NCBI GenBank assembly: GCA_963838315.1 | Contig: CAWIQW010000021.1 | Location: forward strand, 72,561-136,560 | Origin: an uncultured Acidobacteriaceae bacterium | GTDB taxonomy: Bacteria; Acidobacteriota; Terriglobia; Terriglobales; Acidobacteriaceae | Direction: 5' to 3' | DNA: 64,000 bases | Part shown: in pieces, positions 4,659 through 64,000 of the stretch | Layout: every line of letters begins with the position of its first letter | Position numbering within the stretch: the first letter of the stretch is position 1 | Notes under the pieces: generated by a model | Told to the model about the DNA's origin: nothing | Databases searched by the model: none | Seen by the model: only the letters and a program-made list of their open reading frames with translations | Translations under genes and position numbers: made by a program

Positions 4659-4693
4659 CGCTCACCGGGTCTCCTGTTGCGCTGCGAGGCAGC

Positions 4694-11343: not shown

Positions 11344-12090
11344 ATGACCTTCACGCCAAACAGCCTCCATCTCGCTCTGCTTTCAGCCGCGATCCTGGGC
11401 TTTCATCATGGATTCGACTATGACCACATCGCCGCGATCACAGACATCACCAGTGTTCAACTCGACCGCTGGCGGGGCATGCGGCTGGGACTGCTCTACG
11501 CGATGGGTCACGCCGCAACCGTGTCCGTGCTGGGGAGCGCAGTGATTGTTTTCCAACTCTCGTTGCCGCGCGGCATGGACCGCATCGCGGAACGCCTCGT
11601 CGGAATAACCCTGCTGGTACTTGGGATCTACGTTCTGGGTTCGCTCTTTAAAGGAAATCCCGCGCCACGCAGCCGATTTCACATTTTGGCGAAAGCTCTG
11701 CGCTGGGTGCATTGGAAGATGAAGAGTTACTGGCACGAGCATGAGATACCCGCGCCCGAAGACAAGACCTGGAATTACGATCCGAAGTCTGTCGTAATTA
11801 TCGGAGTGGTGCACGGGCTAGGAGCGGAAACGCCCAGCCAGTTAATGATTTTTCTCCTGGCGGCAAACCTTGGCGGAATGAGCAAAGGCTTTCTGGGTCT
11901 GGGCATGTTTATTAGCGGCCTGCTGGTAATGAATACAATCATGACGGCGTTGGCCGTGGGCCTTTTCGGCGTCAGTTCGCGGCTGCCCCGCTTCCAGATT
12001 GTGGTGACTGCACTCACCGCAATTTACAGCCTGGCGGTCGGAGCGTTGTTCCTCTTCGGGTCTTCCAGTCTTCTGCCACCTCTGGGATAA
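11344..12090 (+). CDS. nickel/cobalt transporter, NiCoT/NicO family
   Basis: HX4DH signature (HHGFDYDH) in the first helix, then GHAATV, VVHGLGAETPSQ, and multiple TM helices. Confidence 0.8.
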   Translation: MTFTPNSLHLALLSAAILGFHHGFDYDHIAAITDITSVQLDRWRGMRLGLLYAMGHAATVSVLGSAVIVFQLSLPRGMDRIAERLVGITLLVLGIYVLGSLFKGNPAPRSRFHILAKALRWVHWKMKSYWHEHEIPAPEDKTWNYDPKSVVIIGVVHGLGAETPSQLMIFLLAANLGGMSKGFLGLGMFISGLLVMNTIMTALAVGLFGVSSRLPRFQIVVTALTAIYSLAVGALFLFGSSSLLPPLG

Positions 12091-15690: not shown

Positions 15691-16347
15691 TCAAAGTGCG
15701 AGGTCGAGCAGCAGTCCTTCCGCTCCGCTGCGCGCGTCGATGTCTTTACAGTTTCGCACAATCCAATCTGCTCCAGCCTCTTGGAGTTCGCCTCGCGCCA
15801 TGGTTGTAGTGAACGCGATCACACGGCAGCCCGCGGCTTTTCCCGCCAGAATTCCCGCCGGCGCGTCTTCTACGACAACGCAATCAGCCGGAGCACAGTT
15901 GAGCGCGGCGGCGGCCTTCAAATAGGGCTCGGGGTGTGGCTTCCCAATCTTCACATCGCTGGAAGTAATCATCGTCCTGGGAACCGGCAGGCCGGCGGCA
16001 CGCAGCCGAACCTCAGCCAGCGGACGCGTACACGAGGTCGCAATCGTCCAGCGATCCGCAGGCAGACTATCCAGCAGTGCGCGAGCTCCGGGCAACAGGA
16101 CGACGCCGTCAAGGTCGGCCATTTCCCTGCGCTCCACTTCACGATCTTCCAATTCGATATCGGCGTCCGGCAGCAGTTCCCGAATCGTCGTGCGGCTGGG
16201 GCGTCCGTGCGCCATCTGTACGACCGCCTCGGGTTCAAGCCCGCGCTCGATCGCCCATGTGCGCCACACGCGCGCGACGGCGGGAGTGGAATCGATCAAT
16301 ACACCGTCCATGTCAAACAGCAATCCGCAGCAGCGAGTGGTTGTCAT
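15691..16347 (-). CDS. HAD-superfamily hydrolase (beta-phosphoglucomutase/phosphatase-like)
   Basis: Motif I LLFDMDGVLIDS, a later S/T motif, and VVEDAPAGILAGKAAG (motif IV). Confidence 0.85.
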   Translation of the reverse strand: MTTTRCCGLLFDMDGVLIDSTPAVARVWRTWAIERGLEPEAVVQMAHGRPSRTTIRELLPDADIELEDREVERREMADLDGVVLLPGARALLDSLPADRWTIATSCTRPLAEVRLRAAGLPVPRTMITSSDVKIGKPHPEPYLKAAAALNCAPADCVVVEDAPAGILAGKAAGCRVIAFTTTMARGELQEAGADWIVRNCKDIDARSGAEGLLLDLAL

Positions 16348-16381
16348 TTAATTTTTGCGCGATTGGAGTGCAAAACAGTGA

Positions 16382-16400
16382 GGCCCTCTTGCGGAGGGCC
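16382..16400 (-). terminator. possible terminator after tRNA-Lys
   Basis: 7-bp stem GGCCCTC/GAGGGCC with a 5-nt loop. On the minus strand it is followed by CACTGTTTTGC, a weak U-tract. Confidence 0.35.
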
Positions 16401-16418
16401 ATTTCAAGCCGGTTGAAT

Positions 16419-16494
16419 TGGTGAGCGCGGCAGGAATCGAACCTGCGACCCACGCCTTAAAAGGGCGTTGCTCTACCAACTGAGCTACGCGCCC
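16419..16494 (-). tRNA. tRNA-Lys (anticodon UUU)
   Basis: The reverse complement folds as a cloverleaf. Acceptor GGGCGCG/CGCGCTC, D-arm GCTCAGTTGGTAGAGC, anticodon loop CTTTTAA, T-arm GCAGGTTCGATTCCTGC. The CCA end is encoded. Confidence 0.93.
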
Positions 16495-16761
16495 TCACCT
16501 GTCGCAATTGCCGGAATAAAAAACACTCCCTGACTTCTGCCCGACTACCAGGACCCTTTCTGCTCCGACGTCCGTGGCAGTCTCAGTTGGTTTTTTATGG
16601 CCAGCGGGGAACAGTATAACAGCTTCCTGGCGCTTCCTCTGGATCGCAGAGACCGCCGAAGGCGCAATTTGGGCGGACGCACCGATCGTTTGAATAAAAA
16701 TAGCGGCGTCCGCCGGAAGCTGGTATGACCTGCCATGGCAAACGCGATACACTCTGCATGA

Positions 16762-17487
16762 ATGCGGCTTCATCCATTGTCAAAGGCGCGGGTTGCGCTC
16801 GCTCTCTGCGCGCTTCTGCTGCCTGCAATTGCGCACGCGAGGAAAAAGCAAATGCCCGCCGTGCGCTGGGCCTCGGGCGCACCCGGCTGCACGTTCGAGC
16901 GCGGAGACGATGGCCGCTATCGCTGGACCATGAGCGATCAGGACCTGGAGGTTACTCTGCTGGTTGATTCCCAGGAGTTGACCAAAAGCCGGCGCCGCTT
17001 CTATGGCGTCCTCGGGTTGTACGTCACTGTGACCTACAAAGGCGCGGGCAAATTTGAGTTCCCCGCCGACCTGCGCATGGATTTCGTTCGCCATCATGAC
17101 GTGATGGAAGCTTACGAGGACCCCACCGAACTGCAGAATCGCCTGCAGAACGACGTGGACACAAAAATCTTCGTGACCGAGCGCGAAATCAAGAAGCACC
17201 CCGAACAGGCTGAAGAAAAAACCGCGCTGCTGCGGCAATACCAGAAGGAAGCCGCTATATTCATCGAATTTCTGACGTCACAATATATCCAGCCCGCCAC
17301 GCTCACCCCCGGCAATCCCGAAACCCACGGCTGGGTTTTCTTTCGGACCAGAAATAAATGGATCGGACCTTGGAAAGAGCACGAGGATTTCATCCTGAAC
17401 GTGTGGATGAAAGACAAGATCTGGCAGTTCCCATTTTCGCTGCCTCCCTCGCCGGGCGACCTCATCCTGCGGAAACCGGAGGACTAG
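16762..17487 (+). CDS. secreted hypothetical protein
   Basis: Signal peptide MRLHPLSKARVALALCALLLPAIAHA. I recognise no domain. Confidence 0.55.
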   Translation: MRLHPLSKARVALALCALLLPAIAHARKKQMPAVRWASGAPGCTFERGDDGRYRWTMSDQDLEVTLLVDSQELTKSRRRFYGVLGLYVTVTYKGAGKFEFPADLRMDFVRHHDVMEAYEDPTELQNRLQNDVDTKIFVTEREIKKHPEQAEEKTALLRQYQKEAAIFIEFLTSQYIQPATLTPGNPETHGWVFFRTRNKWIGPWKEHEDFILNVWMKDKIWQFPFSLPPSPGDLILRKPED

Positions 17488-49941: not shown

Positions 49942-50010
49942 CAACTCGGCCAGCGCAGCGGAGACGAGGCAAGCCCCGTCTCGACCCAGCTCCATCGGCC
50001 GCTCCCCGCG

Positions 50011-53000
50011 CTACTTCCCTTCCGGTACGTAGATTGCAGGCACATTCAACTTATTCACAGTCTCATTCAGCGCCACCAGATCCTTGGCCATCAGTTCGCG
50101 CGACTGCGCAAGCAAAGGTTGCGCCTGCTTTTGCAGTTCGTCGTAAACCTCAAGTTGCTGTTGCGTGGGCGCGGCATCCGCCGAATCCACGCTGAAGAGC
50201 AGCGAGTGCAAGCGCTCGTCGATGTGCACGGGATAGTTCAGATTCGCCTCCGAACTCTTCGCGTTGACTTGCAATAGCTGCGACTCCAGATCGAGGCTCT
50301 TTTTGTCGACCTCCCGGGCCGCCGAAATAAATGAAGCGTAACGTGAGTCGTCGCCGAAGCGTTTCGTGAGCGTGTGGATTTGCGAACGCACATCGCGGAT
50401 CCTCCCGATCGCCTCATGAATCTCCGAAACCTGCATCACGATCTTGCCTGCCAATTCCGCCTGCTTCTGCAAATCCTCGTTCGACACCTTCACGCGCGCA
50501 TCGACTTTGAGTTCCAGCGGCGCAGTGTACGACTTGCCGTCCACAGTAAGCCGTACCTGGTACGCACCGGGAAGCACCATGAAGCCGCGGTTGCGGAACT
50601 CGGCTCCTGGTTCGCCCGCCATCGGAACTGGCCCTTGCGAGCGCAGATCCCATGCAAAACGGTTCAGGCCCGCGCTCGCCGGAATCTTCGTCTCCGGCGG
50701 AGTCTGGTCGGGCCATTCGGGCGGCGAGTCGGCTTCTTTCTTTTCTTCGTTCGAGAAGTGGCGCACCAATTTGCCCTGGGCGTCGAGAATATCCAGATCG
50801 ACGACTCCTTTGGGCGCGGACGGGAGATAGTAGTACACAATCGCGCCACTAGGCGGATTCTGTCCCACCGGTTGGCGGCGCTCGTAGAAATCGGGCCAGC
50901 GCATGCGATAGGTCACTCGCGGCTTGTAGAGCACTGCTTCGCTGGACGCTTGCGCCGTCGCGGCGCGTAGCGGAGTAATGTCATCGAGAATCCAGAAAGC
51001 CCGGCCATGGGTCGCGACCACCAGATCGTCATTCTTCACAATCAGGTCATGGATGGGAGCGTTCGGCAAGTTCAGCTGCAGCGATTGCCAGTTCGCGCCG
51101 CCATCGAATGAAACGTAGAGACCGGTTTCCGTGCCTGCGTACAACAGGTTCTTGCGCACGGGATCTTCGCGCACCGCGTGCGTGTACGAGCCATCGGGAA
51201 TCCCGTTCGTGATCTTCGTCCACGACTTGCCGAAATCGGTCGTCTTATAAATGTACGGCCGGAAGTCGTCGAGTTTGTGCGTATCAACCGCCGCATAAGC
51301 CGTGCCTGCATCGTGCGGAGAAGCCTCAATAATGCTGACCAGGCTCCAATCCGGAATGCCCTTCGGCGTCACGTTGGCCCAGTTCTTTCCACCGTCCCGC
51401 GTGATGTGAATCAGCCCATCGTCGGTCCCCGCCCAGAGCAAGCCCTTCTGGACAGGCGACTCCGCAATGGCAAACACCGTGTCGTAGTATTCGACCGAGG
51501 TATTGTCCTTGGTGAGCGGTCCGCCGGACGAAACCTGCTTGCTCTTATCATTGCGCGTCAGGTCGGGACTGATCGCCTGCCACGTCTTGCCCTGGTCTGT
51601 CGTCTTGAAGACACGCTCCGCGGTGGTGTAAATCACGTGCGGATCGTTGGGCGAGATGAGGATCGGCTGCGTCCACCCCAGACGGTACCTCATGTCTCCG
51701 ACGCCGTGGCCAGCAGCATCCATCGGCCACACCGTGACGTCCTGTTCCTGGTTGCTGTGGCGATCAAGGCGCGTTACGGCGCCCCCTCCCGATCCCGCAT
51801 AAATAATGTCCGCGTCCTCCGGATCGGGCTGAATATAGCCGCTTTCGCCGCCACCCGCGTCAAACCAGTGCTGGCGGCCGATATATCCATCGTCGGCGCG
51901 GCTCGCGATCCCGATCGTTGAATTGTCCTGTTGCGCGCCGTACACGTCATAGAGGAACCGGTTGTCGGCGGCTACGTGGTAGAACTGCGCCGTGGGCTGG
52001 TTGTATTGCGTGGACCAGCTCTTCCCGCCATCCACCGAAATCGTCGCGCCCCCATCGTTTCCATTGATCATGCGATTCGGATTCTGCGGATCGATCCAGA
52101 ATCCGTGATGATCGCCATGCGGAGCCGGCAGAAGACTCAGGCTTTTCCCGCCGTCGCTGGAGCGAAAAGCCCCCGTATTCAGGATGTAGACGGTATCGAT
52201 GCTCTTCGGGTCAGCAAATATGTGCGTAAAATACCAGGCGCGCTGCGTCATGCGCTGATCGTCGTTGACGCGCGACCAGTTCCCACCCCCATCATCGGAG
52301 CGGTAAAGGCCGCTCTCCTTAGACTCGATGAGCGCATACACGCGGTTGGAATCGCCGCCCGAAACGCTTACTCCGATGCGCCCCAGAATGCCTTCCGGCA
52401 GGCCGTTGCCTTCGAGATGCTTCCACGTATTGCCGCCGTCGGTTGAGCGATACAGTCCGCTGCCCGGCCCGCCGCTTTCCAGACTCCAGGGCGTGCGCTG
52501 AATCTGATAAAGCGCGGCAAACATCACGTTCGGATTGTGCGGATCGACGCTCAGGTCGATCGCTCCGGTCTTATCGTCTTTGTAGAGGATCTTGTCCCAC
52601 GTCTTGCCGCCATCGGTTGTCCGATAAACACCGCGCTCCGGATTAGGACCATAAGCGTGGCCGAGAGCTGCGACCAGCACGTGATCCGGATTGCGCGGAT
52701 CGATCCACACGCGCGCGATGTGCTGCGTGTCTTTCAGTCCGATGTGTTGCCAGGTCTTGCCGCCATCGGTGGTTTTATAAACTCCATCGCCATAGGAAAT
52801 ATTTCCGCGGAGGCACGACTCGCCGGTGCCCACGTAGATCACGTTCGGATTCGATTCCGACACCGCGATCGCGCCGATCGATGAAATGACGCTGCCATCG
52901 GAAATCGGCTGCCAGTCCACTCCCCCATCGGTCGTGCGCCACACTCCGCCCGAGACGGCGCCAAAATAGTAGGTATAGGGATTGCCGGGAACGCCGGTAA

Positions 53001-53145
53001 CGGCCAGCACGCGGCCGCCGCGATAGGGCCCGATGCTGCGCCACTGCATCCCCTTGAACTGGGATTCGCTATATGGCTGCGCCACCGCGCAGATCGCGAA
53101 GAACACCACCAGAACACACCCCACCCACAAACGCACTGCTTTCAT
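50011..53145 (-). CDS. large secreted BNR/Asp-box (sortilin/VPS10-like) repeat protein
   Basis: Signal peptide MKAVRLWVGCVLVVFFAICAVAQ. At least 10 Asp-box motifs (TTDGGKTW, STDGGNTW, SVDGGKSW, TRDGGKNW, and others). ATG 53145 is preferred. Confidence 0.8.
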   Translation of the reverse strand: MKAVRLWVGCVLVVFFAICAVAQPYSESQFKGMQWRSIGPYRGGRVLAVTGVPGNPYTYYFGAVSGGVWRTTDGGVDWQPISDGSVISSIGAIAVSESNPNVIYVGTGESCLRGNISYGDGVYKTTDGGKTWQHIGLKDTQHIARVWIDPRNPDHVLVAALGHAYGPNPERGVYRTTDGGKTWDKILYKDDKTGAIDLSVDPHNPNVMFAALYQIQRTPWSLESGGPGSGLYRSTDGGNTWKHLEGNGLPEGILGRIGVSVSGGDSNRVYALIESKESGLYRSDDGGGNWSRVNDDQRMTQRAWYFTHIFADPKSIDTVYILNTGAFRSSDGGKSLSLLPAPHGDHHGFWIDPQNPNRMINGNDGGATISVDGGKSWSTQYNQPTAQFYHVAADNRFLYDVYGAQQDNSTIGIASRADDGYIGRQHWFDAGGGESGYIQPDPEDADIIYAGSGGGAVTRLDRHSNQEQDVTVWPMDAAGHGVGDMRYRLGWTQPILISPNDPHVIYTTAERVFKTTDQGKTWQAISPDLTRNDKSKQVSSGGPLTKDNTSVEYYDTVFAIAESPVQKGLLWAGTDDGLIHITRDGGKNWANVTPKGIPDWSLVSIIEASPHDAGTAYAAVDTHKLDDFRPYIYKTTDFGKSWTKITNGIPDGSYTHAVREDPVRKNLLYAGTETGLYVSFDGGANWQSLQLNLPNAPIHDLIVKNDDLVVATHGRAFWILDDITPLRAATAQASSEAVLYKPRVTYRMRWPDFYERRQPVGQNPPSGAIVYYYLPSAPKGVVDLDILDAQGKLVRHFSNEEKKEADSPPEWPDQTPPETKIPASAGLNRFAWDLRSQGPVPMAGEPGAEFRNRGFMVLPGAYQVRLTVDGKSYTAPLELKVDARVKVSNEDLQKQAELAGKIVMQVSEIHEAIGRIRDVRSQIHTLTKRFGDDSRYASFISAAREVDKKSLDLESQLLQVNAKSSEANLNYPVHIDERLHSLLFSVDSADAAPTQQQLEVYDELQKQAQPLLAQSRELMAKDLVALNETVNKLNVPAIYVPEGK

Positions 53146-53237
53146 GAACGCCCCCTGTAATGAAGACAACCATAGTAAACCCAGCAACCCCATGCACGCG
53201 ATGCCGCGTGCGCCAGGCCGCTAATCGGCATCGCCAT

Positions 53238-54080
53238 TTACATGTCGGAAAAAAGAAACTCCAGGGCCTCGGGAAAGCGCGCAGCCCAGGCCGCCTCGGA
53301 GTGAGACGCGCCCTCCTCAATTCGTACTTTCAACCAGCTTTCGCCCAACTGGGCCTGCTGCAGAATGCTGGCCAGTTGGCGCGCGTCATTGGTGATTTTC
53401 TCGTCCTTCACCGGATCGCCAATTTCATGCGTTCCCATGCCGAGATACAAGCGCAGTGGCCATTCCTCAAACTTGCGGGATTCGGCGAGAATTCTTCGAT
53501 TCGCCACGAATAAAGACGGGCTTTCGATCAGCAGCCGTCCAAAAGTGTTGGGCATCGACAGTTGCGTATATAAAGTGATCAGCCCTCCCAGCGAAGAGCC
53601 GCCCAGCCCGGTATTCCGGGCACCCGTCAGCACCGGGTACTGCCCTTCCACCAGGGGCATTACCTCGCGCTTCAGGAACTTCGGATAGTGCTTGCCTTCC
53701 ACGACCGGCACTTTGGGATCGCGAGACTTGTAGGGTAGATATTCGCGCACCCGGTTCTTTCCCGTATTGTCGATACCGACGATGATGAGCGGCGGGATCT
53801 TTTTCTCGGCGATCAGGCGACTGGCCGTCTCGCCCACTTGCCAGTGAACTCCGGCAAAGGCGGTCGCCGCTTCGAACAGATTCTGCCCATCATTTAAATA
53901 CAGCACCGGATAGCGCGTCCCGCCGACCTGGTCATAGCCCGGCGGCAGCCATACTCGCAGCAGGCGGGTATTCCTGAAAATCCGGCTGCTCAGTTCGTGG
54001 ATCCGCAACGTGCCGCCGGCAATGGGCACGACCGCTTCGGGAGAACGCCTGGTCTTCTTCAGAGGTATCAGTCGGGCCAT
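53238..54080 (-). CDS. esterase-family alpha/beta hydrolase (enterochelin-esterase-like fold)
   Basis: RYPVLYLNDGQNLF and the nucleophile region LGGSSLGGLITLY. Confidence 0.75.
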   Translation of the reverse strand: MARLIPLKKTRRSPEAVVPIAGGTLRIHELSSRIFRNTRLLRVWLPPGYDQVGGTRYPVLYLNDGQNLFEAATAFAGVHWQVGETASRLIAEKKIPPLIIVGIDNTGKNRVREYLPYKSRDPKVPVVEGKHYPKFLKREVMPLVEGQYPVLTGARNTGLGGSSLGGLITLYTQLSMPNTFGRLLIESPSLFVANRRILAESRKFEEWPLRLYLGMGTHEIGDPVKDEKITNDARQLASILQQAQLGESWLKVRIEEGASHSEAAWAARFPEALEFLFSDM

Positions 54081-54116
54081 GAAGAGGGAGATTATCGCAG
54101 CATGATTGAAAGATTG

Positions 54117-54590
54117 TCAGCTTGGATCAGGAATTGCGTCTCGGTTCCACCAGATCAGCCCTGCCAGCATCGTGATGATCGAGATCAAAGCCAGCGAACC
54201 AAGACACAGAATGCACCACACTCCCAGTACGTGCCCTTCGATATAGGTCAGGTAGAGAGCAAAAGCTGAACCCAGTGCGGCCGCGCCGAACAGCATCGCC
54301 GGAGTGTCGCGGCGTTCCCGATAGACGGTCGCCAATCCCGCCAGGGCGCCATAGCCGAGCATTCCAATCAGGGCCACCGGGACGCCGAGAATGGCTGAAT
54401 ACTGGCTGCGGTTAACGATGTCACAACTGAACGTCGCACCGATATCGCAGTATGCCGTCTTCGAGGGCGCGTAATGACGCTGCAACGAGATCGACGACAC
54501 CGCGATTCCGCAGACCGCCAGAATCGCCACCATGCTCATCAATCTCTGGGAAAATCCTCTCCCCGGGTTAACGTTCATGGCAGTGAACAT
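54117..54590 (-). CDS. vitamin K epoxide reductase (VKOR) family protein
   Basis: Four TM helices, loop cysteines YCDIGATFSCDIV, active-site CxxC in a TM helix (VWCILC), and SAILGVPVALIG. Confidence 0.8.
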   Translation of the reverse strand: MFTAMNVNPGRGFSQRLMSMVAILAVCGIAVSSISLQRHYAPSKTAYCDIGATFSCDIVNRSQYSAILGVPVALIGMLGYGALAGLATVYRERRDTPAMLFGAAALGSAFALYLTYIEGHVLGVWCILCLGSLALISIITMLAGLIWWNRDAIPDPS

Positions 54591-55006
54591 CCTGTGCGGT
54601 CACTCAACTCCTCGAGGGTAAAAATGCGTTCCACCCTTTCACCCGTAGGCGGAAACTCCCAGGTGGGGTAGTGGTGCACATTCCGCTCTTTGCAAACTTC
54701 CGAAGTCGCGTGAATATCGCCCTTCACGCCGCACTCCACGTAGGGCACATACTCGAACGAGGCGGCGAATTTTTCTTTTTGCTCCTCGCAATGAGGACAC
54801 CAGTAGGCTCCGTACATCTTCACTCCACGATCGCCCAGGCAGTGCGCGAAGCCGTCGTACCGGTGCTGAGTGCGGTTGCCCAGATAGTAGGCCAGCGCGA
54901 ATGCGGCCACAATACCCATCCCATAGATCACGCGCCGATTCCGCTTGCCGGGCGCTGGTGCCGCCTCCGTGCTTCCATTCCGGCGCTCCTCCTTCTGTCG
55001 CGACAT
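54575..55006 (-). CDS. membrane-anchored thioredoxin-like protein (VKOR partner)
   Basis: TM anchor VIYGMGIVAAFALAYYL, then KMYGAYWCPHCEEQKEKF, a Trx-like CxxC as in the Trx domain of VKOR fusions. It overlaps the VKOR start by 16 nt. Confidence 0.7.
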   Translation of the reverse strand: MSRQKEERRNGSTEAAPAPGKRNRRVIYGMGIVAAFALAYYLGNRTQHRYDGFAHCLGDRGVKMYGAYWCPHCEEQKEKFAASFEYVPYVECGVKGDIHATSEVCKERNVHHYPTWEFPPTGERVERIFTLEELSDRTGCSLP

Positions 55007-55065
55007 GGAGTTTTTATATCACGAGTTGAGACGGGACCATCTGTGTATTGCGGACTAACAGAGCT

Positions 55066-56019
55066 TCACACAGCCACACGCAGCGCCGAGTGCAGCACGT
55101 CAATCCTCTGGCATTCCAGCGTCAAAACTTCCCCATCCACCATCACATCGACTGGCTCGTCTAACTGAAACTCAACTTGCCTCGCCGCCTGGCGCTCGGC
55201 CAGCGGATGCCGGGTATGCGTGCCGTCATAAAGAGTAGCAAGATTCCGGATCAACCCCACGCGTCCGATCGGCCCCCATCGAACATACTCGATCAGTCCA
55301 TCATCGGTGACAGCATCGGGAGCAATCATCATCGTCCCTCCCGTAAACTTGCTGTTGTTGAAAGTCAGGAACAGGCAGGGGCGCGAATCGAACTTACCCT
55401 CGCCGTTCACGCGAACGGGAAACGGCCGGCGCTTCAACCGCGCAAGACAGAGAAAAATCGACATCAAATAGCCCGTCTGGCCGGACCCGCGAAATCGCCG
55501 GTGCCGCAGCGCCGCCACATCGGCCGCAAATCCCATGCTTAACAGGTTCGTGTAGTAGATCGTGCCGGTTTTGTGTGTCAGACGCAAAACATCACAAGGC
55601 CGTGCGCGTCGCAACTCCAATGCCCGCACAGCGTGCTCGATACCAGTGGCATCGGCCCCTGAACCAGGCTCTTCAAAATCGCGCAGAAACGAATTCCCCG
55701 TTCCCAGCGGAAGAAAGCCGAGCGTAGGAATTTCGCCTTCCTGCGCCGTCGTCTGAGGCCCACCTGCCAGTTGCGAGTCGGGGAATAGCCCGTTGACGAT
55801 CTCGAACGAAGTGCCGTCTCCGCCGACGGCAATAAACTTGCGATAACCGCGACTGTAGGCGCCGCGGGCAATCTGCGTTGCTTCCCCCGGGGCGCCCGTC
55901 TCCGCCGTCTCAATCGCAAGCCCGCTCTGGCGCAGCCGTTCCAACGCGGAGGCTATGCGCTCGCGGCCGCGGCCTCCGCCCGCCGCCGGATTGATGATGG
56001 CTAGAAGCGTTTCGTTCAT
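55066..56019 (-). CDS. diacylglycerol-kinase-family lipid kinase (YegS/BmrU-like)
   Basis: AIINPAAGGGRG and FIAVGGDGTSFEIVNG, the DAGK catalytic-domain signature. Confidence 0.85.
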   Translation of the reverse strand: MNETLLAIINPAAGGGRGRERIASALERLRQSGLAIETAETGAPGEATQIARGAYSRGYRKFIAVGGDGTSFEIVNGLFPDSQLAGGPQTTAQEGEIPTLGFLPLGTGNSFLRDFEEPGSGADATGIEHAVRALELRRARPCDVLRLTHKTGTIYYTNLLSMGFAADVAALRHRRFRGSGQTGYLMSIFLCLARLKRRPFPVRVNGEGKFDSRPCLFLTFNNSKFTGGTMMIAPDAVTDDGLIEYVRWGPIGRVGLIRNLATLYDGTHTRHPLAERQAARQVEFQLDEPVDVMVDGEVLTLECQRIDVLHSALRVAV

Positions 56020-56046
56020 AGCGCGGACTTCGACCGGGACTGAGAA

Positions 56047-57756
56047 CTAGATCTCTACAACCTGCTCGCGATTGGCGGTCGCTCCGATTTCCGCCGCCAG
56101 TTCTCCCCGCTTGATTTTCATCGATGCGGTGCGTGGAAAATCCTTTTCCCATATCACGTATCCGCCGATGCGCTTAAAGTCTGGAAGGGTTCGGTTGCGG
56201 CGCACGATCTCTTCGCGCAGTTCTTCGTCCCATTTCTGGTTCTGCTCAAGCCGCACCACCAGAACCAGCATCTCGTTCCCGAGCGTCTTCTGCGGCCACA
56301 AATAGTTCGCCGCGAAAATGCAAAATTCCTTGATGGCGATCCCATCAAATACCGACTCGATATCCTCGGGATAAATATTTTTCCCACCCTCCGTCACGAT
56401 CATGTTCTTCTTGCGCCCAAACAGTTGCAGGTGCCGGTGTTTGTCGAAGCGTCCCTGATCGCCCGTCAGCAGCCAGCCTTCGACAATGGTCTGAGCCGTC
56501 AGTTCCGGATCATCCAGATAGTGCGACATGACGGATCGGCTGAGCACAGCCACTTCGCCGATCCCGTCCGAATCCGGATTCAGGATGCGTACCTCCGTGC
56601 CCGGCAATGCCTTGCCGACAGTGTCGGCGCGAAACGGCTTCAGGTCGTTGAGCGTCACTGCCGTGCAAGCCTCGGTGAGTCCATAGCCGCACGTGACCGG
56701 AATTCCGAGATCGTAGAAAAATTGCAAGGTCGAGGGATCGGTGAACGCGCCGCCCACGATAAGCGCGCGCAACTCCCCTCCAAAGGCTTTATGGACCTGC
56801 GGCAAAAGACGCCGGCTGAGTTCAACCCTGGGACGTTTTCGCGTGAGCATCCGGTTCAGACCGATCAACCGGTCCAGCATCCAGCGCTGTTTCGGCAGCA
56901 GCAGGTCGAACTTGGCACGCAGCCCGCGCTCCAGGTTCTTTAGCACCATCGGCACCAGGCTCACATACGTGATGCGGTAGCGCACAAAAGCGTCGCGCAC
57001 AAACTCAGGCCGCAGAGTCCGCAAGTGCACAACGCAAGCCCCGCACACAAACGGTCCAATGAAGCCGACCATGAAATCGATCGCGTGATTCGTGGGCAAA
57101 ATGCTCAGGTAGCGCACGCCCGGCCAGAACGGATACCACGCCGTCAGCGCCGCGCACTGCTCGAGATAGGCGTCATGCGTGAGCACGCAGCCCTTCGGGC
57201 GTCCGCCGGTCCCCGACGAATATACGATGCAAGCTGTGTCTTCGCGCTGCCGCGGCGCAAATATCGGATCGCCCTTCCGCCGGAATTCTTCCCAGCGGAA
57301 TGCCCCATGCAAATCGACGCCCGCCGGAGCCTCCGTCACCAGCACCATCGAAGTTGTACGTTTCGCAAATTCCGGAGACTGCGTGATCGCCCGCCAAAGG
57401 TAGTACTCGACGATCAGCAACTTGGCCTTCGAATGCGCCAGCAGTTGCAGATGCTCAGCGGCAGAAAGCTTGTAATCGAGCGGCACGAGCACGCCACCGC
57501 AGAAGAAAATCGAATACGCGGAGATCAGCCACTTTGACTGGTTGGTCATGATGATCGCAGCGCGATCGCCCGCCTTGAAATCGGCGTCCTGCAGCGCCCG
57601 GCAAAGCGGCCGGGCCATTTCCTTGAAGTCGGAATAAGTCAGCCGAACCTTCTCGCGGTCGCGATCGGCTTCAATCAGACATGTTTCAGTTGGCCAGCGA
57701 TCAAGAGCGGCGGTAAGAGCAGCGCCCAGGCTGGCATATTGATGGAGATCAAGCAT
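56047..57756 (-). CDS. acyl-AMP-forming ligase (long-chain acyl-CoA/ACP synthetase family)
   Basis: AMP-binding motifs [27 protein letters not shown], and [11 protein letters not shown]. Confidence 0.88.
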
Positions 57757-57769
57757 TCAGGTCTTTGTT

Positions 57770-57898
57770 CACCACAGAGACAAAGAGGCACAGAGAAAAA
57801 AGAAGTGTATCAGAACGTAATTTCCCCAATTGACCGGACGTGTGGGGCGCATCAAGAAAGATCAGAGATTTTCTCTGTGTCTCTGTGCCTCTGTGGTG
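57770..57898. repeat. MITE/REP-like element: 30-nt imperfect terminal inverted repeats flanking 69 nt
   Basis: The left arm is CACCACAGAGACAAAGAGGCACAGAGAAAA (57770..57799). The reverse complement of the right arm (57869..57898) is CACCACAGAGGCACAGAGACACAGAGAAAA. They match at 27 of 30 positions. Confidence 0.5.
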
Positions 57899-57908
57899 AG
57901 AAGTTGTG

Positions 57909-58151
57909 TCACAGCCGCGCCTGAATTCGCCCGGCCAGCGTGCGGAAATCCGATACGCCCTGCAATTCGTAATCCGGCAATTCGATGCGGAAGTGGTGCT
58001 CGATCCGCGTCAGCAGATCGAGCGCCTGCAAGCTGTCGATTCCCAGCGTCTTGAAGAAGTCGTCGTCCGGCGTGAGTTTTTCCCGCGGAACCTTGAAGTG
58101 ACTCGCGGCAAGGTTCAAAATCTCGTCGAGGGTTTGATCCGTGGTCGGCAT
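57909..58151 (-). CDS. acyl carrier protein
   Basis: 80 aa with the phosphopantetheine attachment motif LGIDSLQALDL. Confidence 0.85.
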   Translation of the reverse strand: MPTTDQTLDEILNLAASHFKVPREKLTPDDDFFKTLGIDSLQALDLLTRIEHHFRIELPDYELQGVSDFRTLAGRIQARL

Positions 58152-58203
58152 AACGTAGCGCGGCGCCTTTCAAATTGCGAACTGCAAATTACAAAGTACC
58201 AAT

Positions 58204-59007
58204 CTACGGCAGGTATGGCTGCGGCCCTTCATTCTCCACAAACTTCCGCAGACCTGCTTCGACTGCCGGTTGCGAATAAAGCTCGCAAAAAATGTCGATC
58301 TCTCGCTTCAATTCTTCATACGGAATCGGCTTGACGAATTTCTTCGCCGCCGCGGACGTGGCGCGATCAAACTTCCCCACCTGGCTGGCGGTCGCACGCG
58401 CCACTCGCAGAGCTTCGCCCTCCGCCGCAATCTGGCTGACCAACCCGATCTGTTGCGCCTTCATGACGTTAAAGCTGCGCCCGGTCAGCAGCAGGTCCCG
58501 CACCACCGCATTGCCAAGATCCCGCTTCAGCCGCGGGATTCCGCCGAACCCCGGAATAAGCCCCAGCCGCAATTCCGGAAAACAAAAGCGTGCCATTCGA
58601 TCCGCAATAATAATGTCGCAGACCAGCGCCAGTTCGAACCCGCCGCCGAACGTAACTCCGTGGACCGCCGCGATAGTCGTCAATGGAAGCGCATCGAGCG
58701 CGTTCATCACCGCGTGAATGCGCTCCAGAAACTCGCGCACGCCACGCGCGGCTGCGGATTTCTCCATCCCTTGCGCACGCTGGTACAACTCACGCAAGTC
58801 CGCGCCCGCCGAAAATCCCGCCGCCTGCGTCGAATGGAGAATGAGCGCGTGCGCGGCTTCCGTAAGGCCCGGCAACGCACGCACAAACTCTTCCAATTCC
58901 TCCAGCACAAGCGACCCAATCTCGTTGCACGGCTCGCGATGCAGCGTCAACTCAATCGCCCCGTTCACGATCTGCCACGAAATAGTCTGGCCTTTGTGCT
59001 CCCTCAT
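58204..59007 (-). CDS. enoyl-CoA hydratase/isomerase (crotonase) family protein
   Basis: FSAGADLRE and the oxyanion-hole region VHGVTFGGGFELALVCD. A 4-nt overlap with the upstream ligase gene. Confidence 0.88.
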   Translation of the reverse strand: MREHKGQTISWQIVNGAIELTLHREPCNEIGSLVLEELEEFVRALPGLTEAAHALILHSTQAAGFSAGADLRELYQRAQGMEKSAAARGVREFLERIHAVMNALDALPLTTIAAVHGVTFGGGFELALVCDIIIADRMARFCFPELRLGLIPGFGGIPRLKRDLGNAVVRDLLLTGRSFNVMKAQQIGLVSQIAAEGEALRVARATASQVGKFDRATSAAAKKFVKPIPYEELKREIDIFCELYSQPAVEAGLRKFVENEGPQPYLP

Positions 59008-60659
59008 GCGGTGGCGGCTGCCCCATACATCGCGTCAATCTCTTTGCGGAAACGCTTTGCGATCAAGTCGCGCTTCAACTTGCCGTTAGCCGTCAGCAGC
59101 CCGCTCTCGGGCGTGAAGGCCGCTTCCACAATGCGGAAGGCGCGCACCTGTTTGTAGTGTGGGAGATCTTGGTTAGCACGATCCAGAGCGGCCTGTGCCT
59201 GCTCAGCGCTCACTTTGCCGGTTACCAGCGCTGTCAGAAATCCACGCCCGTTCCCCACGACGACCACCTGAGTCGCTCCCGGCAACTGCTGCAGAATCTT
59301 ATCCTCGATCGGTTCTGGAGCGATGTTGTGCCCCGATCCCAGAATAATAAGGTTCTTGATGCGCCCCACGATCTTCCAGTTCCCTGCCGCATCGACCTCG
59401 CCCTGATCGCCGGTATGGAACCACCCGTCGCGTACGACTTTCGCTGTCTCATCGGCGCGATTCCAGTAGCCGGGGAAAATGTTCGGGCCGCGGACCACGA
59501 TCTCTTCATTCTCAGCCAGCTTCATCTCCACGCCAGCAATGGCCGGTCCGGCGCGCCCTGGCACTACTTTTCCACCGGGATCATCCATCGTGCAGATCGC
59601 GGTCGTTTCGGTGAGCCCGTACACCTGCAACACAGGAATTCCCAGCATCATGAAAAACAGTTGCGTCTCGATGTTGAGCGGCGCCGACCCGCAAATCAGC
59701 GCCCGCAAGCGCGGACCGATCATCTTTTTGCGTATAGTCGGAAACACGAGCCGGTTCGCCATCATAAGCCAGAGTAAGTCCCCGGCGCGCGGCTTACCGT
59801 CATGCTTGCGCGCCCACGCGCCTTTCGCTTTGCTATAGACCTTGAGCGGAAATCCGCCCGTTTTCCAAAGCTGCTCATCGACTGCTTTCCGCATGCGCTC
59901 CAGCAATGCCGGTACGTTCAGGAAATAATCGGGAGCCGCGGCGCGCATGTCGGCCGCAATTTTTCCAAGATCGGTATTCAAAGTGAGCTCGCTGCCGCGC
60001 AGCAAGCACGTGAGCAGCATGATCCAGGAACCCGCAAAGCAAAATGGCAGGTAATGAAAAACTGCCTCCTGCCCCGAACTTCTCTTCATGAGCTGATCGA
60101 GCCGCCCGGAGGTGCATCCCAGCATGTGGGCGACATTGCCCGCATTCAGCATCACGCCCTTCGCCTCGCCCGACGTGCCCGACGTATAAATGATGGCGAC
60201 GACATCGGGTTCCACAAGAGCGGGCATGACGCTGTCCGCCGGCTCGCGCCCGGCAACAAAAACGTTGTCGAAACAAAAGTAGGGAGGGGCATCCGGCCAT
60301 TCCTGCACGATCGCCTCGCCCAGCGCCTTGTCCCCGCAGGCAATCACCGAGGGCCAGCAATCTTTCATCATGGCCACCAGTTCCGACGGTGCCTGCCGCG
60401 CATACAATGGGACCGCAGTAAGACCTTCCGCCATGATCGCCAGATCCATCGCGACCCAGCGCATCGAATTGTTGGCAAGAAGCGCGCACCGGTCGCCCTT
60501 TTTCAGGCGCAGCCGCCGGAGATAAGCGCGAGCCACCTGCACCGAAGCCAGCAGATCCCGTCCAGTGAAAGAAACTGGCTGATCGGCATGCAGTTCCTGC
60601 AACACCACAGCCTCGCCGTTGCTTTCCATGCCTGCCAGAATTTCTTCAAGAAAAGTCAT
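59004..60659 (-). CDS. acyl-AMP-forming ligase (long-chain acyl-CoA/ACP synthetase family)
   Basis: AMP-binding motifs IIYTSGTSGEAKGVML, VYGLTE, TGDQGEVD, and GHNIAPEPIE. Confidence 0.88.
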   Translation of the reverse strand: MTFLEEILAGMESNGEAVVLQELHADQPVSFTGRDLLASVQVARAYLRRLRLKKGDRCALLANNSMRWVAMDLAIMAEGLTAVPLYARQAPSELVAMMKDCWPSVIACGDKALGEAIVQEWPDAPPYFCFDNVFVAGREPADSVMPALVEPDVVAIIYTSGTSGEAKGVMLNAGNVAHMLGCTSGRLDQLMKRSSGQEAVFHYLPFCFAGSWIMLLTCLLRGSELTLNTDLGKIAADMRAAAPDYFLNVPALLERMRKAVDEQLWKTGGFPLKVYSKAKGAWARKHDGKPRAGDLLWLMMANRLVFPTIRKKMIGPRLRALICGSAPLNIETQLFFMMLGIPVLQVYGLTETTAICTMDDPGGKVVPGRAGPAIAGVEMKLAENEEIVVRGPNIFPGYWNRADETAKVVRDGWFHTGDQGEVDAAGNWKIVGRIKNLIILGSGHNIAPEPIEDKILQQLPGATQVVVVGNGRGFLTALVTGKVSAEQAQAALDRANQDLPHYKQVRAFRIVEAAFTPESGLLTANGKLKRDLIAKRFRKEIDAMYGAAATA

Positions 60660-60733
60660 CGCGATTTATAAATCGTCTTTCTCCCAGAAAGTGTAACGCC
60701 CGGAAATGTCATCCTGGGCGCTGTGGGTGACTT

Positions 60734-62146
60734 TTACCCGTACGCCGTCACCAGCTCTTTCAGCGTGTCGCTCATCGGAGGCAGATAATCTTCCCAACTC
60801 CACTCTCCTCGCCGGGTGGGAAACTCGGGATAGCGCCGCTGCACTTCTTCTTCAAAATACACTCCCATGCGCGCCATCAACTTCAAATTGCGGACTACCG
60901 TGCGCCCGATCCCGTCCGCAATTCGTTCCCCCTCGCGATCGAGGATTTCGAGCGCCGCCAAAGTCCGCTCTTCGAGATCGGGATCGTCCACGTGCATCAG
61001 CAACTCCCGGTGCCCGCGGTCTTTCATCAGATTACGGATGCGTTCATCCATTGTTATGCCCGCCGATGGCACCAGCGCCGGCATGGATGTCACAATTCCG
61101 TGATAGCGCGACGAAACCATCATGCGGCACGCGCGCAGAATGCTCACCATTTGGTACATGTTGTAATCTTCGGACGTCAGCACCGGCACTCCGCCGCCTA
61201 ATTTCTCCGCGATCCGTTTGCAGGGACGCGCATCCAGCCGCTCCGTCGCCGCCATGACCACGAAAACATTTCTCTTTTGCCGGAATGCTGCGACCGCGTT
61301 CGCGATCGAAGTGAGGTAATACTCGTAAGCCCGGTCCGCCTCGGGCCCCGAATGATGGAAATACGGCCCGCGATAATGACTCTTCTCGTAAGCACCCGTA
61401 ACGCTGCGCAGCGCAGCCTTCGCGATCGAAGCTTTCACCGGCCATTCAAACGGATTGATCGGACAAACCACCAGCACCGGAGTCTTTCCATCCCATCCGA
61501 CATCGCGCAGCGCCTTCTGCCCATACTCGGCGCCCAGCGGCTCGAATGTCCACGCGGTATCGGTGCCAAGTTCGGTGGGAACCCCAAGTTCGCGCAAAAG
61601 TTTTCGCGACTCCTCGTTGCGCGTGATTACCAGTGAATTCTTGCAATATCGGCCGCACATCTTCGCGACCAGCGGATCCATCTGTCCCGCCTCGGCGCCA
61701 TATCCCACGGAAAGTTTATTCTCCGCCGCGGCAATACCGAGCGAGCCGATCATCATGGTGGCCAGCGCGTTCGCGAATTTTGACTTGAACATCGAGCCTT
61801 CGCACGCTACCACTCCATGATGCTTCGGAACCTCATTCGCTAAAAATGGCGGGAAAATATCCGGCAAATGCACCTGCGACGTCCCCTCAAAATAACCGCG
61901 CGAACGGTCGAAGTTGAAGGTCATCATGGTGAGGTCAACGTGCTCCGGCCCAAGAATTCGCCGTACTTGCCGCAGCATCTCCTCCACGCGCACATCCGAC
62001 CCAGTGTTCCGTGTCCCGTTATAGCCGGCAAAGAGCAGCTTCAGTTTCTCGCCCGGCCGCCAGGGCTCGCCCTTGCCCATCATCCACTGCACCTTCTTGC
62101 CTTCGATGATGCCGGACACCCACGCTTCCAGAAAGAAGTCCATCAT
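60734..62146 (-). CDS. polysaccharide pyruvyl-transferase-family protein (assignment tentative)
   Basis: [18 protein letters not shown] near the N-terminus and [13 protein letters not shown] near the C-terminus resemble PS_pyruv_trans motifs. ATG 62146 overlaps the upstream stop (ATGA). Confidence 0.6.
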
Positions 62147-63282
62147 GCGGCAGACCCCCCGGCCTTCGTGCTCGTAGGCCACGCCTGGTACGGATAGGCG
62201 AAGTTATGCTGCCGGCTGAAGCGCAGCAGCGGAAAGCTGTATTGCGAAAACGGTACCGGCTTGCGTCCCATTTCCGTGGTCACGCGCGTGTTATCGAACA
62301 CCGTGTTCCAGGTCAGGTAAGGCAGAAAGACTTTCATGAGCGCCGCGCCGTGGCCCACGTTCCCCTTGCGATTCGCTAGAAAATTGACTGTCGATGTAAA
62401 CGGTTTTTCCAGGATCGGCAGAAATACCGGACCGCGCTTGTTCTGCTCTTTTGCCAGAGCGGCCGTCAACTCCCGAAAACTCTGCGAGTCTCGGCCCGAA
62501 GATAAATGATACGTGTCGTAGTTCGGGCTTTCCTTCATGTGCAGCGTCGCGATCGCATCGGCCACAAAGTCCACGTTGACAATGTCGATCTTGTCATGCG
62601 GACGGAACGGCAGCACCGCCAAACCCGCCAGAAAGACGAACGAGCGCACCATATCGAACTGCGTGGTCTCCGGATAACGGCTGTCTCCGAGCACGATGCT
62701 GGGCCGGAAAATGGTCAGCGGCACTTCCGGCAGCAACTCGCGCACCATGTGCTCGCAAAATTTTTTCGTGCGCGCATACGGATCATAATCCGACCTGTCC
62801 CACTCGATCGATCGATCTTCCGTCACCACTTCATGGCTGCGCTTGCCCGCGACCGCCACCGTGCTCACGTTCGAAAAACGCCGCAAGCCGTGATAATACT
62901 GCGATTGCCGCCCCAACTGTATGACTTCCAGCGTGCCGCGCAAATTCACATTCAGGCAGGCTTTTTCCGACTTGCGATTCAGCGAGGCGGCACAGTGGAT
63001 GACCGAGTCGGTGGTGTGTACGAGCCGGTCATAGTCCGCGCGATCCAGCCCAAACTTCGGATCAGTCAAATCACCGCGAAAAATTCGGATCTTCGCCTGC
63101 AAATATTCGTAGAAAGTGGGGAACGCCATGTGCAGTTGCAGGGCATTCCAAAGCCGTACCTCCGCGTCGCGCGCATCGCGGCCGCGCACCAGGACATTAA
63201 TAGTCGCATCGTGCTGGCTGAGCAGGTTGGCGGCGACGTGCGCGCCAATGTAGCCGGTCGAACCGGTCAGGAATATCGCCAC
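62143..63282 (-). CDS. SDR thioester-reductase / fatty-acyl reductase-like protein (NAD_binding_4 type)
   Basis: [16 protein letters not shown], then VIHCAASLN, then the Tyr-x3-Lys region YARTKKFCE. This is typical of terminal reductase (male-sterility) domains. Confidence 0.8.
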
Positions 63283-64000
63283 GTTGCTCCGTTTGTCCCG
63301 GTCTTTATGCCATTCCCGTTATCGTTGACCGCTGGCATCTGCAGCACTCGCGGTTCGCGCGCTTCCAGCGGACGCCCCTCGATCAGCGGATAGGTCCACC
63401 GCCGCAGCGCGGGAATATGAATATCGATCCAGTACTCCCACCAATCCAGGCCGGCCGTATCGTACGCGAATATTTCCTTTTCTTCCGGCACCAGCGCCTG
63501 CGAAAGCTTTTCGACATTATCGGCAACAAAATCGTGCTCGTTGTGAAGAATAAAAGGCTCGAAAAGCTCGATCAGTTTCTCCACCCGCTCCAGATTGCGC
63601 TCGGCCTTGGCCAGCGCCTTGCGCATCGTCGAAGGCGCCATGACGCTTTGAATCGAGCGGATAATCATCTTCTGCGCCGGCGCCGACATCCGGTTATAGC
63701 GCTCCTTCGACACCGGAATCGCATCCATGCGCAGACGCAGCCAGTTTTCCAGGCCTTCCTGCGCGCGATAATGCCGCCGGTGTCCGAGGGACGTGAGTTC
63801 AATCGACCGTCCCATATCGCAGGGATTCGTAACCGACGTCGCTAACTGGTAGAGCGGATCATGCCGCCGTTCGACCAGGGCCGCCGCGATCAGCGTCATT
63901 CCCGCGCACACCGCGTCCACCGGAATAATGTCCAGCCGCTTGCGTTCGTTCGAAGGCAATTGGCGGAAAGATGTCCCCAGCAGATACGACAGCGATGCCG
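63267..64000 (-). CDS. fatty-acyl reductase-like protein, C-terminal part (5' end outside the window)
   Basis: The frame is open to the window edge. ..[21 protein letters not shown].. resembles the end of an NAD_binding_4 domain, followed by a helical C-terminal region. It overlaps the next gene by 16 nt. Confidence 0.6.

Follow-up and report, generated by a model that had tools for sequence, protein, structure and literature searches.

Which product is made by an operon that combines two acyl-activating ligases and two reductases with a single acyl carrier protein (ACP), a crotonase, a lipid kinase and a pyruvyl-transferase-family protein? This question is raised by the last nine kilobases of a stretch of 64,000 nucleotides from an uncultured Acidobacteriaceae bacterium (assembly GCA_963838315.1, contig CAWIQW010000021.1, positions 72,561 to 136,560), which is called the window throughout and to which all coordinates without a locus label refer. 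In this study, we found that the operon is real and conserved over at least three phyla, and it probably encodes a dedicated pathway from a fatty acid via a fatty alcohol to a phosphorylated membrane-lipid precursor, which is probably ether-linked. The best explanation, to which we give a rough probability of 0.45, blends this general statement with a route via phosphoenolpyruvate (PEP): two rounds of activation and reduction would lead to a phosphorylated alkyl (ether) glycerolipid precursor.

Eight co-directional genes on the minus strand, from position 55066 to the window end, were confirmed by the listing of open reading frames (ORFs) and by Pfam. From the 5' to the 3' end of the operon they are:

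63267..64000, minus strand, 3' part of a fusion of a HAD-like domain with a FAR-type alcohol-forming reductase (HAD-FAR); Sterile domain PF03015, E 3e-11; frame open to base 64000
62143..63282, minus strand, thioester reductase (TR); NAD_binding_4 (PF07993), E 2e-46
60734..62146, minus strand, pyruvyl-transferase-family protein (PYR), 470 aa; PS_pyruv_trans (PF04230), E 7e-10, 39.7 bits against a cut-off of 25.3
59004..60659, minus strand, ACSL/FadD11-like ligase (LIG1); AMP-binding and AMP-binding_C_3
58204..59007, minus strand, crotonase (ECH); ECH_1 (PF00378), E 2e-39
57909..58151, minus strand, ACP, 80 aa; PP-binding, E 4e-13
56047..57756, minus strand, second ligase (LIG2); AMP-binding, E 2e-63
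55066..56019, minus strand, YegS/BmrU-type lipid kinase; DAGK_cat PF00781, E 1e-23, and YegS_C PF19279, E 2e-23

This strand, gene order and set of overlaps had been predicted from the letters of the sequence, and ORF ends, direct reading and Pfam all agree with it; every domain expected by the original prediction (AMP-binding, PP-binding, NAD_binding_4, ECH_1, PS_pyruv_trans and DAGK_cat) was recovered in the profile searches. ATGA overlaps, read directly from the sequence, join TR to PYR (62143..62146) and LIG1 to ECH (59004..59007). According to the ORF ends, FAR and TR overlap by 16 nt (63267..63282), and the other intergenic gaps in the operon measure 27-152 nt. A 103-aa ORF with a TTG start (57862..58173) was rejected as the ACP gene because it sits in another frame. 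In the Pfam scan, no ketosynthase, acyltransferase, thioesterase or aminotransferase was detected within 55066..64000. The ketosynthase plus acyltransferase pair of a type I/II polyketide synthase (PKS) or fatty acid synthase (FAS) is missing from 50000-64000 and from most related loci, and neither the operon nor its conserved surroundings contain an Spt-type gene (PLP-dependent serine palmitoyltransferase) or another aminotransferase-class gene. The earlier argument against a PKS/FAS or an Spt cluster was thereby borne out for the interval as well as for most related loci. An analogy to Caulobacter-type sphingolipid or ceramide-phosphoglycerate synthesis was dropped, as Spt and related genes are missing.

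Is this arrangement more than a local coincidence? A genome scan with PYR identified relatives in at least 583 species-level genomes, and the best 80 loci were examined. The order HAD-FAR, TR, PYR, LIG1, ECH, ACP, LIG2, kinase is kept in 80/80 of these, all of them Terriglobales/Terriglobia-type metagenome-assembled genomes (MAGs), with PYR identities of 78-95%. When metagenomes were scanned with a diverse set of aligned PYR sequences as the seed, 80 loci were obtained in which PYR is 48-78% identical to that of the window, and nearly all of those with a long enough contig display the same order. This recurrence places the operon far beyond chance; as had been predicted, it is a single conserved unit, and its genes stay together across ~160 related loci. 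Clustering separated a large Acidobacteriota-like group from a GC-rich group, which database names place in the Myxococcota (Nannocystaceae, Myxococcales) and whose PYR is ~50% identical to that of the window; further relatives are named as Bdellovibrionales, Pseudomonadota, Blastocatellia and Acidobacteria. The operon itself occurs in Terriglobia, Blastocatellia, Myxococcota and Bdellovibrionota, and the first three are aerobic bacteria known for alkyl ether lipids (PMC13159169). Within the operon, conservation is highest for PYR, ECH and ACP (~85-95% identity among species with 65-78% for the kinase). Between the window and loci L002-L039, PYR was observed to be ~88-95% identical across species, while ligases, kinase and neighbours reach 60-80%. 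When all neighbouring ORFs were clustered in search of further conserved partners, only an acyltransferase, a ketoacyl-ACP synthase III (KAS III) and the radical SAM protein Tes emerged, in a result that is noisy from spurious antisense ORFs; the window contains none of the three. Tailoring, export or regulatory genes conserved near the operon were not found.

Since the first gene runs beyond the window, its 5' part was taken from relatives. A 12.8-kb ENA contig that is identical to the window's operon (L001) extends only 2.4 kb further and ends inside the HAD part. Together with the orthologues in L004, L002 and L079, it reveals a full gene product of ~770-860 aa with a HAD-like domain (PF12710), NAD_binding_4 (PF07993) and Sterile (PF03015). 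Thus, the original description of this gene as a partial FAR was correct for the C-terminal part and missed the additional HAD-like domain. In L001, L004 and L002, PF07993 (E 5e-52 to 8e-53) is accompanied by PF03015, as expected of a FAR, and the motifs GVTGFIGK (GxxGxxG) and YTYTK (YxxxK) are present, with only the Sterile part lying within the window. In L001, a frameshift separates the HAD-like part from the rest of the FAR gene (L001:86-514 vs L001:424-2382). The offset is 338 nt in L001 against 336 nt in the orthologues, which are in frame, and the frameshift is probably an assembly error rather than real.

In the acidobacterial clade, the HAD-like unit forms one protein with FAR, and in the myxobacterial clade a separate upstream gene encodes it. 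RxEG(T/S)L is present at L004:6379-7300, L079:6542-7300, L133:1320-2006 and L089:6069-7010, which cover both clades. In the fused and stand-alone forms, motif I is [FW]R[AV]EG[ST]L in place of DxDGT, so that the nucleophilic Asp of the DxDx(T/V) signature of HAD-IB phosphatases is missing, while the PF12710 fold match is retained (up to 1.4e-23). Judged by this motif, the unit appears to be a conserved pseudo-phosphatase. An active phosphatase and an FkbH-like glyceryl-loading enzyme were both rejected because the nucleophilic Asp is replaced. The genes located 5' of HAD-FAR are unrelated among L004, L079, L002 and L111, which identifies HAD-FAR as the first gene of the conserved unit and argues against a PKS, siderophore or exopolysaccharide pathway hidden past the window end; such a pathway, which would have spoken against a lipid function, was seen in none of these four relatives.

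The remaining enzymes retain their catalytic motifs. TR scores 137.8 bits against TIGR01746, under the cut-off of 213, and its GxTGYxG (GSTGYIG) and YxxxK (YARTK) motifs are invariant in 16 diverse orthologues. LIG1 has FadD11 as best NCBIfam match (195 bits) and possesses all adenylation motifs. LIG2, which is ~29% identical to LIG1, resembles FadD3/MenE-type ligases, also with complete adenylation motifs. It always follows ACP, a pairing that is kept even in Pseudobacteriovorax, and is likely an acyl-ACP (or acyl-CoA) ligase. Both catalytic Glu residues of ECH (GGGFELAL ... FPELRLG) are conserved in 15/15 orthologues, and no NCBIfam equivalog cut-off was reached. The phosphopantetheine-attachment Ser of ACP (D/N-S) is conserved, and the kinase, the last core gene of the operon, carries the GGDG motif and reaches 103.7 bits against TIGR00147, just under the cut-off of 118.65.

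The most puzzling component is PYR, whose role in such a pathway had been left without explanation. It is a PF04230 member above the curated threshold, and the matches of its relatives P0134 and P0190 cover the profile almost completely (E 4e-14 and 1e-15). It is not a CsaB, as it scores 56.8 bits against the CsaB equivalog TIGR03609, under the cut-off of 213. An exhaustive representative search resolved a distinct ~470-aa subfamily of 239 clusters at 50% identity (E<1e-30). The AlphaFold 2 model (pLDDT 96.8) exhibits a GT-B-type fold of two Rossmann domains. Invariant in the family are R176, D196, D305, H349 and D367; R347 and R369 are almost so. In CsaB, mutations defined R148, R306-x-H308 and K328 as PEP-binding residues, and those of Pvg1p are R217, R337-x-H339 and K361 (PMC10435577 for CsaB). 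The R176 ... R347-x-H349 ... R369 spacing of PYR resembles the PEP-binding residues of CsaB, a correspondence by motif spacing and not by alignment. In the database, PYR is annotated as 'WcaK-like'.

Two gene fusions give a direct hint at the partners of PYR. In Pseudobacteriovorax, FAR is fused to PYR (P0274, NRA66965.1, 1014 aa), and P0190 (967 aa) is a fusion of PYR with a LIG1-type ligase. Both an alcohol-forming and a carboxylate-activating enzyme are therefore functionally tied to PYR. L084, the locus with the PYR-LIG1 fusion, has a single protein consisting of fatty acyl-AMP ligase (FAAL), ACP and TR in place of the first ligase, the ACP and the reductase, and the best NCBIfam matches of this protein are fatty acyl-AMP ligases; together with the ACSL/FadD11-like character of LIG1 this points to fatty substrates. 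A 240-aa multi-pass membrane protein without Pfam or NCBIfam match was observed in the same locus (L084:4534-5256), between TR and a short-chain dehydrogenase/reductase (SDR) of ketoreductase (KR) type. In 12 loci, all of them non-Terriglobales, the kinase gene is followed by one for a membrane-anchored AGPAT-type acyltransferase with an HX4D motif. At another variant locus (L131, positions 9590-9967, 11700-12065 and 16053-16900), genes of toxin-antitoxin type (PemK/MazF, PIN, UPF0175) and an ORF resembling an aspartyl protease are scattered between the operon genes, and a FabH-like KAS III gene is inserted between those for the crotonase and ACP.

In the best explanation, these enzymes would act in two consecutive rounds. 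In the first round, a fatty acid would be loaded on ACP by LIG2 and reduced by FAR to a fatty alcohol. PYR would then join the three-carbon carboxylate of PEP to this alcohol, giving an O-alkyl enolpyruvate, and thereby introduce an ether bond together with a new carboxyl group. In the second round, LIG1 may activate this carboxyl group to a 2-alkoxyacrylyl thioester, an enoyl thioester and hence a conceivable crotonase substrate; hydration by ECH would produce an O-alkyl-glyceroyl thioester, which TR could reduce to O-alkylglycerol. Phosphorylation by the kinase would result in alkylglycerol phosphate, and the acyltransferase, where present, might convert this into the ether analogue of phosphatidic acid. 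The assignment of the reductases to the rounds is uncertain, and L084 suggests that TR goes with PYR-LIG1. A pyruvyl unit that turns an alcohol into a ligase substrate would explain why two ligases and two reductases are present. Given two ligases and two reductases with one ACP, the fusions of PYR, the hydratase coupled to LIG1, and a kinase followed by an AGPAT, the two-round reading is the most economical one, and the catalytic motifs of ECH, TR, FAR, ACP and the kinase are intact, in its favour. A PEP-dependent bridge is thus a concrete but unproven proposal for PYR, and the specific route via a PEP enol ether is tentative and rather doubtful. The broader original prediction, that a fatty acid is loaded on a dedicated ACP, reduced and built into an alkyl/ether or phosphorylated lipid, is in line with the FAR-PYR and PYR-ligase fusions, with the AGPAT in 12 loci, with the presence in Myxococcota and Blastocatellia and with a Tes homologue in 17 loci; the ether bond is the part that we infer.

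This Tes homologue provides a further connection to membrane lipids. In L002, the closest genome (PYR 95%), a radical SAM protein of 728 aa with a Zn_ribbon_HMPTM domain is encoded ~4 kb 5' of the operon on the same strand (L002:148-2334, plus strand). It matches the archaeal tetraether synthase GDGT-MAS (7tol) over nearly the full length (E 1e-59), and its best NCBIfam match is NF045702, 'tetraether lipid synthase Tes' (314-332 bits, under the equivalog cut-off of 450). The homologue was found 5' of the operon, always on the operon strand, in 13 of the 96 loci for which 2.5 kb or more of upstream sequence was available and, at contig edges, in four more, which gives 17 loci (L002, L111 at 4162-6357, L141, L109, L017, L033, L028, L015, L019, L076, L003, L005, L014, L166, L128, L143 and L122). 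L109, L111, L141, L122, L128 and L143 have only 0.26-0.37 kb between this gene and HAD-FAR, and L166 has ~1.1 kb. In the remaining ten loci, of which nine are the closest relatives of the window, the distance is 2-5 kb. Acidobacterial Tes homologues are published, unvalidated candidates for the joining of alkyl chains into membrane-spanning lipids (PMC8941075). Potentially, the operon represents a new route to glyceryl ethers that is independent of radical chemistry, in which the backbone is built on the fatty alcohol from PEP rather than from glycerol phosphate or dihydroxyacetone phosphate (DHAP), and which together with Tes would form the missing aerobic pathway to precursors of glycerol dialkyl glycerol tetraethers of the branched type (brGDGTs). 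We consider this a speculative idea, with the odds clearly against it.

Several observations weigh against a PEP-based, two-round pathway. Known PF04230 enzymes form cyclic pyruvate ketals on sugars and not enol ethers on lipids. Pvg1p (5ax7), the only pyruvyltransferase with a solved structure, was not matched in PYR sequence searches with a single sequence or a profile of 55 sequences, which returned only noise; as a consequence, the PEP-site correspondence is one of motif spacing. It was also not among the 50 listed Foldseek matches of PYR, which comprise generic GT-B folds at TM ~0.5 and are uninformative on the donor. PYR homologues of less than ~45% identity are found in unrelated contexts, next to nonribosomal peptide synthetase (NRPS)/PKS genes or a patatin, or alone. 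Such contexts, together with those in Endozoicomonas, Schlesneria and deltaproteobacterial MAGs, indicate that distant members of the family are not bound to the operon. L084 has no crotonase and instead contains the KR-type SDR, and the Pseudobacteriovorax locus, which is interrupted by a transposase and by the end of the contig, has FAR-PYR, ECH, ACP and LIG2 and neither LIG1 nor TR. The HAD-like domain, which lacks its nucleophile, has no role in the proposed scheme, the acyltransferase is missing from the Terriglobales operon and from the window, and linkage to Tes is limited to 13/96 loci with enough upstream sequence. Finally, a 2-O-alkylglycerol would be the outcome of the scheme, but the bacterial monoethers known best are 1-O-alkyl compounds. 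We infer which substrates are used, that PEP is the donor, in which order the reductases act, what the product is and that the enol ether is converted to a glyceryl ether, and the chemistry is deduced from gene content.

One PYR locus outside the operon was observed in Schlesneria paludicola (L087, JH636435.1). A 54%-identical PYR (10001-11446) is directly followed by PEP carboxylase and lies divergent to an SdsA-type alkyl sulfatase, whose reaction sets fatty alcohols free. These neighbours anecdotally fit a fatty alcohol and PEP as PYR substrates.

How do other explanations compare? It could be assumed that LIG2, ACP, the reductase and, where present, the acyltransferase correspond to a split ElbD, the multidomain enzyme of the myxobacterial elb system, and that head-group modification or the supply of an accessory building block is the task of PYR, LIG1 and ECH, so that PYR would form no ether bond. 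The original prediction had noted that the domain inventory resembles that of ElbD, and the published domain content bears this out, as the elb domain families coincide almost entirely with a part of the operon: ElbD combines FAR-like, ACS, ACP and AGPAT domains, ElbB is HAD-like and ElbA/ElbE belong to the NAD-epimerase family (PMC9131029). By domain family, the HAD-like unit (PF12710) and TR (NAD_binding_4/Epimerase) are comparable to the ElbB and ElbE families, so that HAD-like, FAR-like, ACS, ACP, AGPAT and NAD-epimerase-family domains are shared. Reported split variants of elbD, with adjoining diacylglycerol kinases and acyltransferases, and the presence of the operon in both Myxococcota and Acidobacteriota fit this assumption as well. 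However, the conservation of PYR, LIG1, ECH and the kinase is just as strict as that of the elb-like parts, PYR, ECH and ACP are even the most conserved ones, and the fusions link PYR directly to FAR and to a long-chain-type ligase. An elb-type pathway with PYR in an accessory role is therefore unlikely.

A quite unlikely alternative preserves the known ketal chemistry of PF04230 for PYR and leads to a pyruvate-ketal lipid with a long-chain diol. LIG2 and ACP would carry a 2-enoyl or 3-hydroxy chain, the crotonase would supply the 3-hydroxyacyl thioester and FAR would reduce it to a 1,3-diol. PYR would close a six-membered pyruvate ketal on this diol, in the way known from the 4,6-diol of sugars; LIG1 and TR would then reduce the ketal carboxyl group and the kinase would phosphorylate the resulting alcohol. 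Such a route is compatible with both fusions of PYR and explains the minimal Pseudobacteriovorax set (LIG2, ACP, ECH and FAR-PYR without LIG1 or TR) as well as L084, where 3-hydroxyacyl chains could come from the KR-type SDR instead of the crotonase. A KAS III (FabH-like) gene between ECH and ACP, restricted to L107, L131 and L136, also agrees with it. On the other hand, the 2-enoyl or 3-oxo precursor has no supplier in the core operon, which encodes no acyl-ACP dehydrogenase and, in most lineages, no ketosynthase or KR, and the crotonase is translationally coupled to LIG1 instead of LIG2 or ACP. Moreover, after ketal formation and phosphorylation no hydroxyl group would remain for the AGPAT-type acyltransferase of the 12 loci. 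To our knowledge, no such lipid has been reported.

It is very unlikely that the operon is an 'NRPS-like' ligase-ACP-reductase cluster that releases a small signalling molecule or secondary metabolite derived from a fatty aldehyde or alcohol in place of a membrane lipid. The order adenylation, ACP, TR is typical of such clusters (with the TIGR01746 and carboxylic-acid-reductase-like matches), and one PYR homologue lies beside an NRPS/PKS cluster. Against this stand a constraint of housekeeping grade (the at least 583 genomes with a PYR relative, the operon in every one of the 80 genome loci and PYR at ~90% identity), the lipid kinase and AGPAT-type acyltransferase, which point to phospholipid assembly, the Tes neighbour, and surroundings free of conserved tailoring, export and regulatory genes. 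That PYR pyruvylates a cell-surface polysaccharide or lipopolysaccharide while the other genes supply a lipid or acyl substituent is most improbable, since the PS_pyruv_trans name, the weak CsaB match and the 'WcaK-like' annotation are confronted with ~160 loci in which the operon has no conserved partner among glycosyltransferase, flippase, polymerase or sugar-nucleotide genes, and with a separate ~470-aa subfamily fused to FAR or to a fatty-type ligase.

Downstream of the operon, four further genes follow in the window:

54575-55006, minus strand, thioredoxin-like protein; weak PF00085 match, just under threshold
54117-54590, minus strand, VKOR family (Pfam); 16-nt overlap with the thioredoxin-like gene
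53238..54080, minus strand, esterase; PF00756
50011-53193, minus strand, Sortilin-Vps10/BNR-repeat secreted-type protein, 1060 aa, downstream of the esterase

The thioredoxin-like and VKOR pair is likely involved in disulfide-bond formation. Outside Terriglobales, this pair and the esterase adjoin the operon only in the nearest metagenome loci (L126, L166), and all other lineages lack them there; a part in the pathway, which had been considered, was therefore rejected as improbable. The 1060-aa protein is kept (81-93% identical) in 19/80 genome loci and displays no visible tie to the lipid genes.

Branched GDGTs are among the most widely used terrestrial proxies for palaeotemperature and pH, and among aerobic sources Acidobacteria have the best support. 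In E. aggregans and S. usitatus, brGDGTs are induced at low O2. Recent papers still regard the way in which aerobic Acidobacteria form ether bonds as open, and ether-producing Acidobacteria mostly have no Ger/PlsA (PMC13159169). Within Acidobacteria, elb is restricted to subdivision 4, and Tes homologues from bacteria have yet to be validated (PMC8941075, PMC13274423). In the literature searched, we found no description of the present gene set and no link of pyruvyl transferases to ether lipids. A PlsA/Ger-type reductase or an Mss radical SAM protein did not turn up among the scanned neighbour genes, for which no dedicated test was made. The operon is thus a concrete and testable candidate for the missing ether-lipid pathway of aerobic Acidobacteria: it occurs in hundreds of soil and peat Acidobacteria and in Myxococcota, combines an alcohol-forming reductase with a phospholipid-type kinase, and in several lineages has a Tes homologue directly ahead of it. 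If the proposal is true, the operon would serve as a genetic marker to spot brGDGT producers in metagenomes, a large and unstudied 'polysaccharide pyruvyl transferase' subfamily would receive its first lipid-related function, and the recurring architecture of two ligases and two reductases would be explained.

In comparison with known systems, PYR shares with CsaB, Pvg1p and WcaK (PF04230) a score above the Pfam gathering threshold, a GT-B-like two-domain fold and the R ... RxH ... R/K spacing. It differs from them as a separate subfamily without a sequence match to Pvg1p, without conserved glycan genes and with fusions to FAR or a fatty-type ligase; its proposed acceptor is a lipid alcohol and its proposed product an enol ether, or a lipid-diol ketal. 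A mechanistic parallel, by analogy only, is offered by MurA/MurB, where an alcohol and PEP react to an enolpyruvyl ether and phosphate, followed by processing of the C=C bond. MurA/MurB have an unrelated fold, and in the proposed scheme the C=C bond would be hydrated by the crotonase after thioesterification instead of being reduced by a flavoenzyme. The logic of ligase, carrier and NAD_binding_4 domain is that of carboxylic acid reductases and NRPS-like enzymes and even occurs as a FAAL-ACP-TR fusion in L084; in contrast to these, the parts are split in the operon, two ligases and two reductases are present, and the kinase and acyltransferase create a phospholipid-type context.

Among ether-lipid systems, the eukaryotic pathway (FAR1, GNPAT, AGPS) also employs a FAR with a Sterile domain to make the fatty alcohol for the ether chain, and alkylglycerol salvage likewise uses alkylglycerol kinase followed by AGPAT-type acylation. 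Unlike the eukaryotic pathway, the operon encodes no AGPS or GNPAT homologue, its C3 backbone is proposed to come from PEP and not from DHAP, and the ether is predicted at C2. The archaeal radical SAM enzyme Tes/GDGT-MAS has a clear homologue 5' of the operon in the 17 related loci. The window does not encode it, most lineages do not have it in the core operon, and in bacteria its function is unproven. The closest relation is that to elb of Myxococcus xanthus, with which the operon has the kinds of domains and the distribution in aerobic Myxococcota and Acidobacteriota in common; in both systems, the ether-forming mechanism is unknown, and a PEP route, if true, might illuminate elb chemistry. 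Compared by domain content and not by Elb sequences, the operon differs in that its domains are separate genes (except HAD-FAR) without an ElbD-type fusion, in that the AGPAT is absent from the Terriglobales form, and in that four strictly conserved enzymes are added, namely PYR, a second ACSL-like ligase, the crotonase and the lipid kinase. In summary, the operon is probably an elb-like bacterial cluster for ether/alkyl lipids, related to elb in domain content but not elb in the strict sense.

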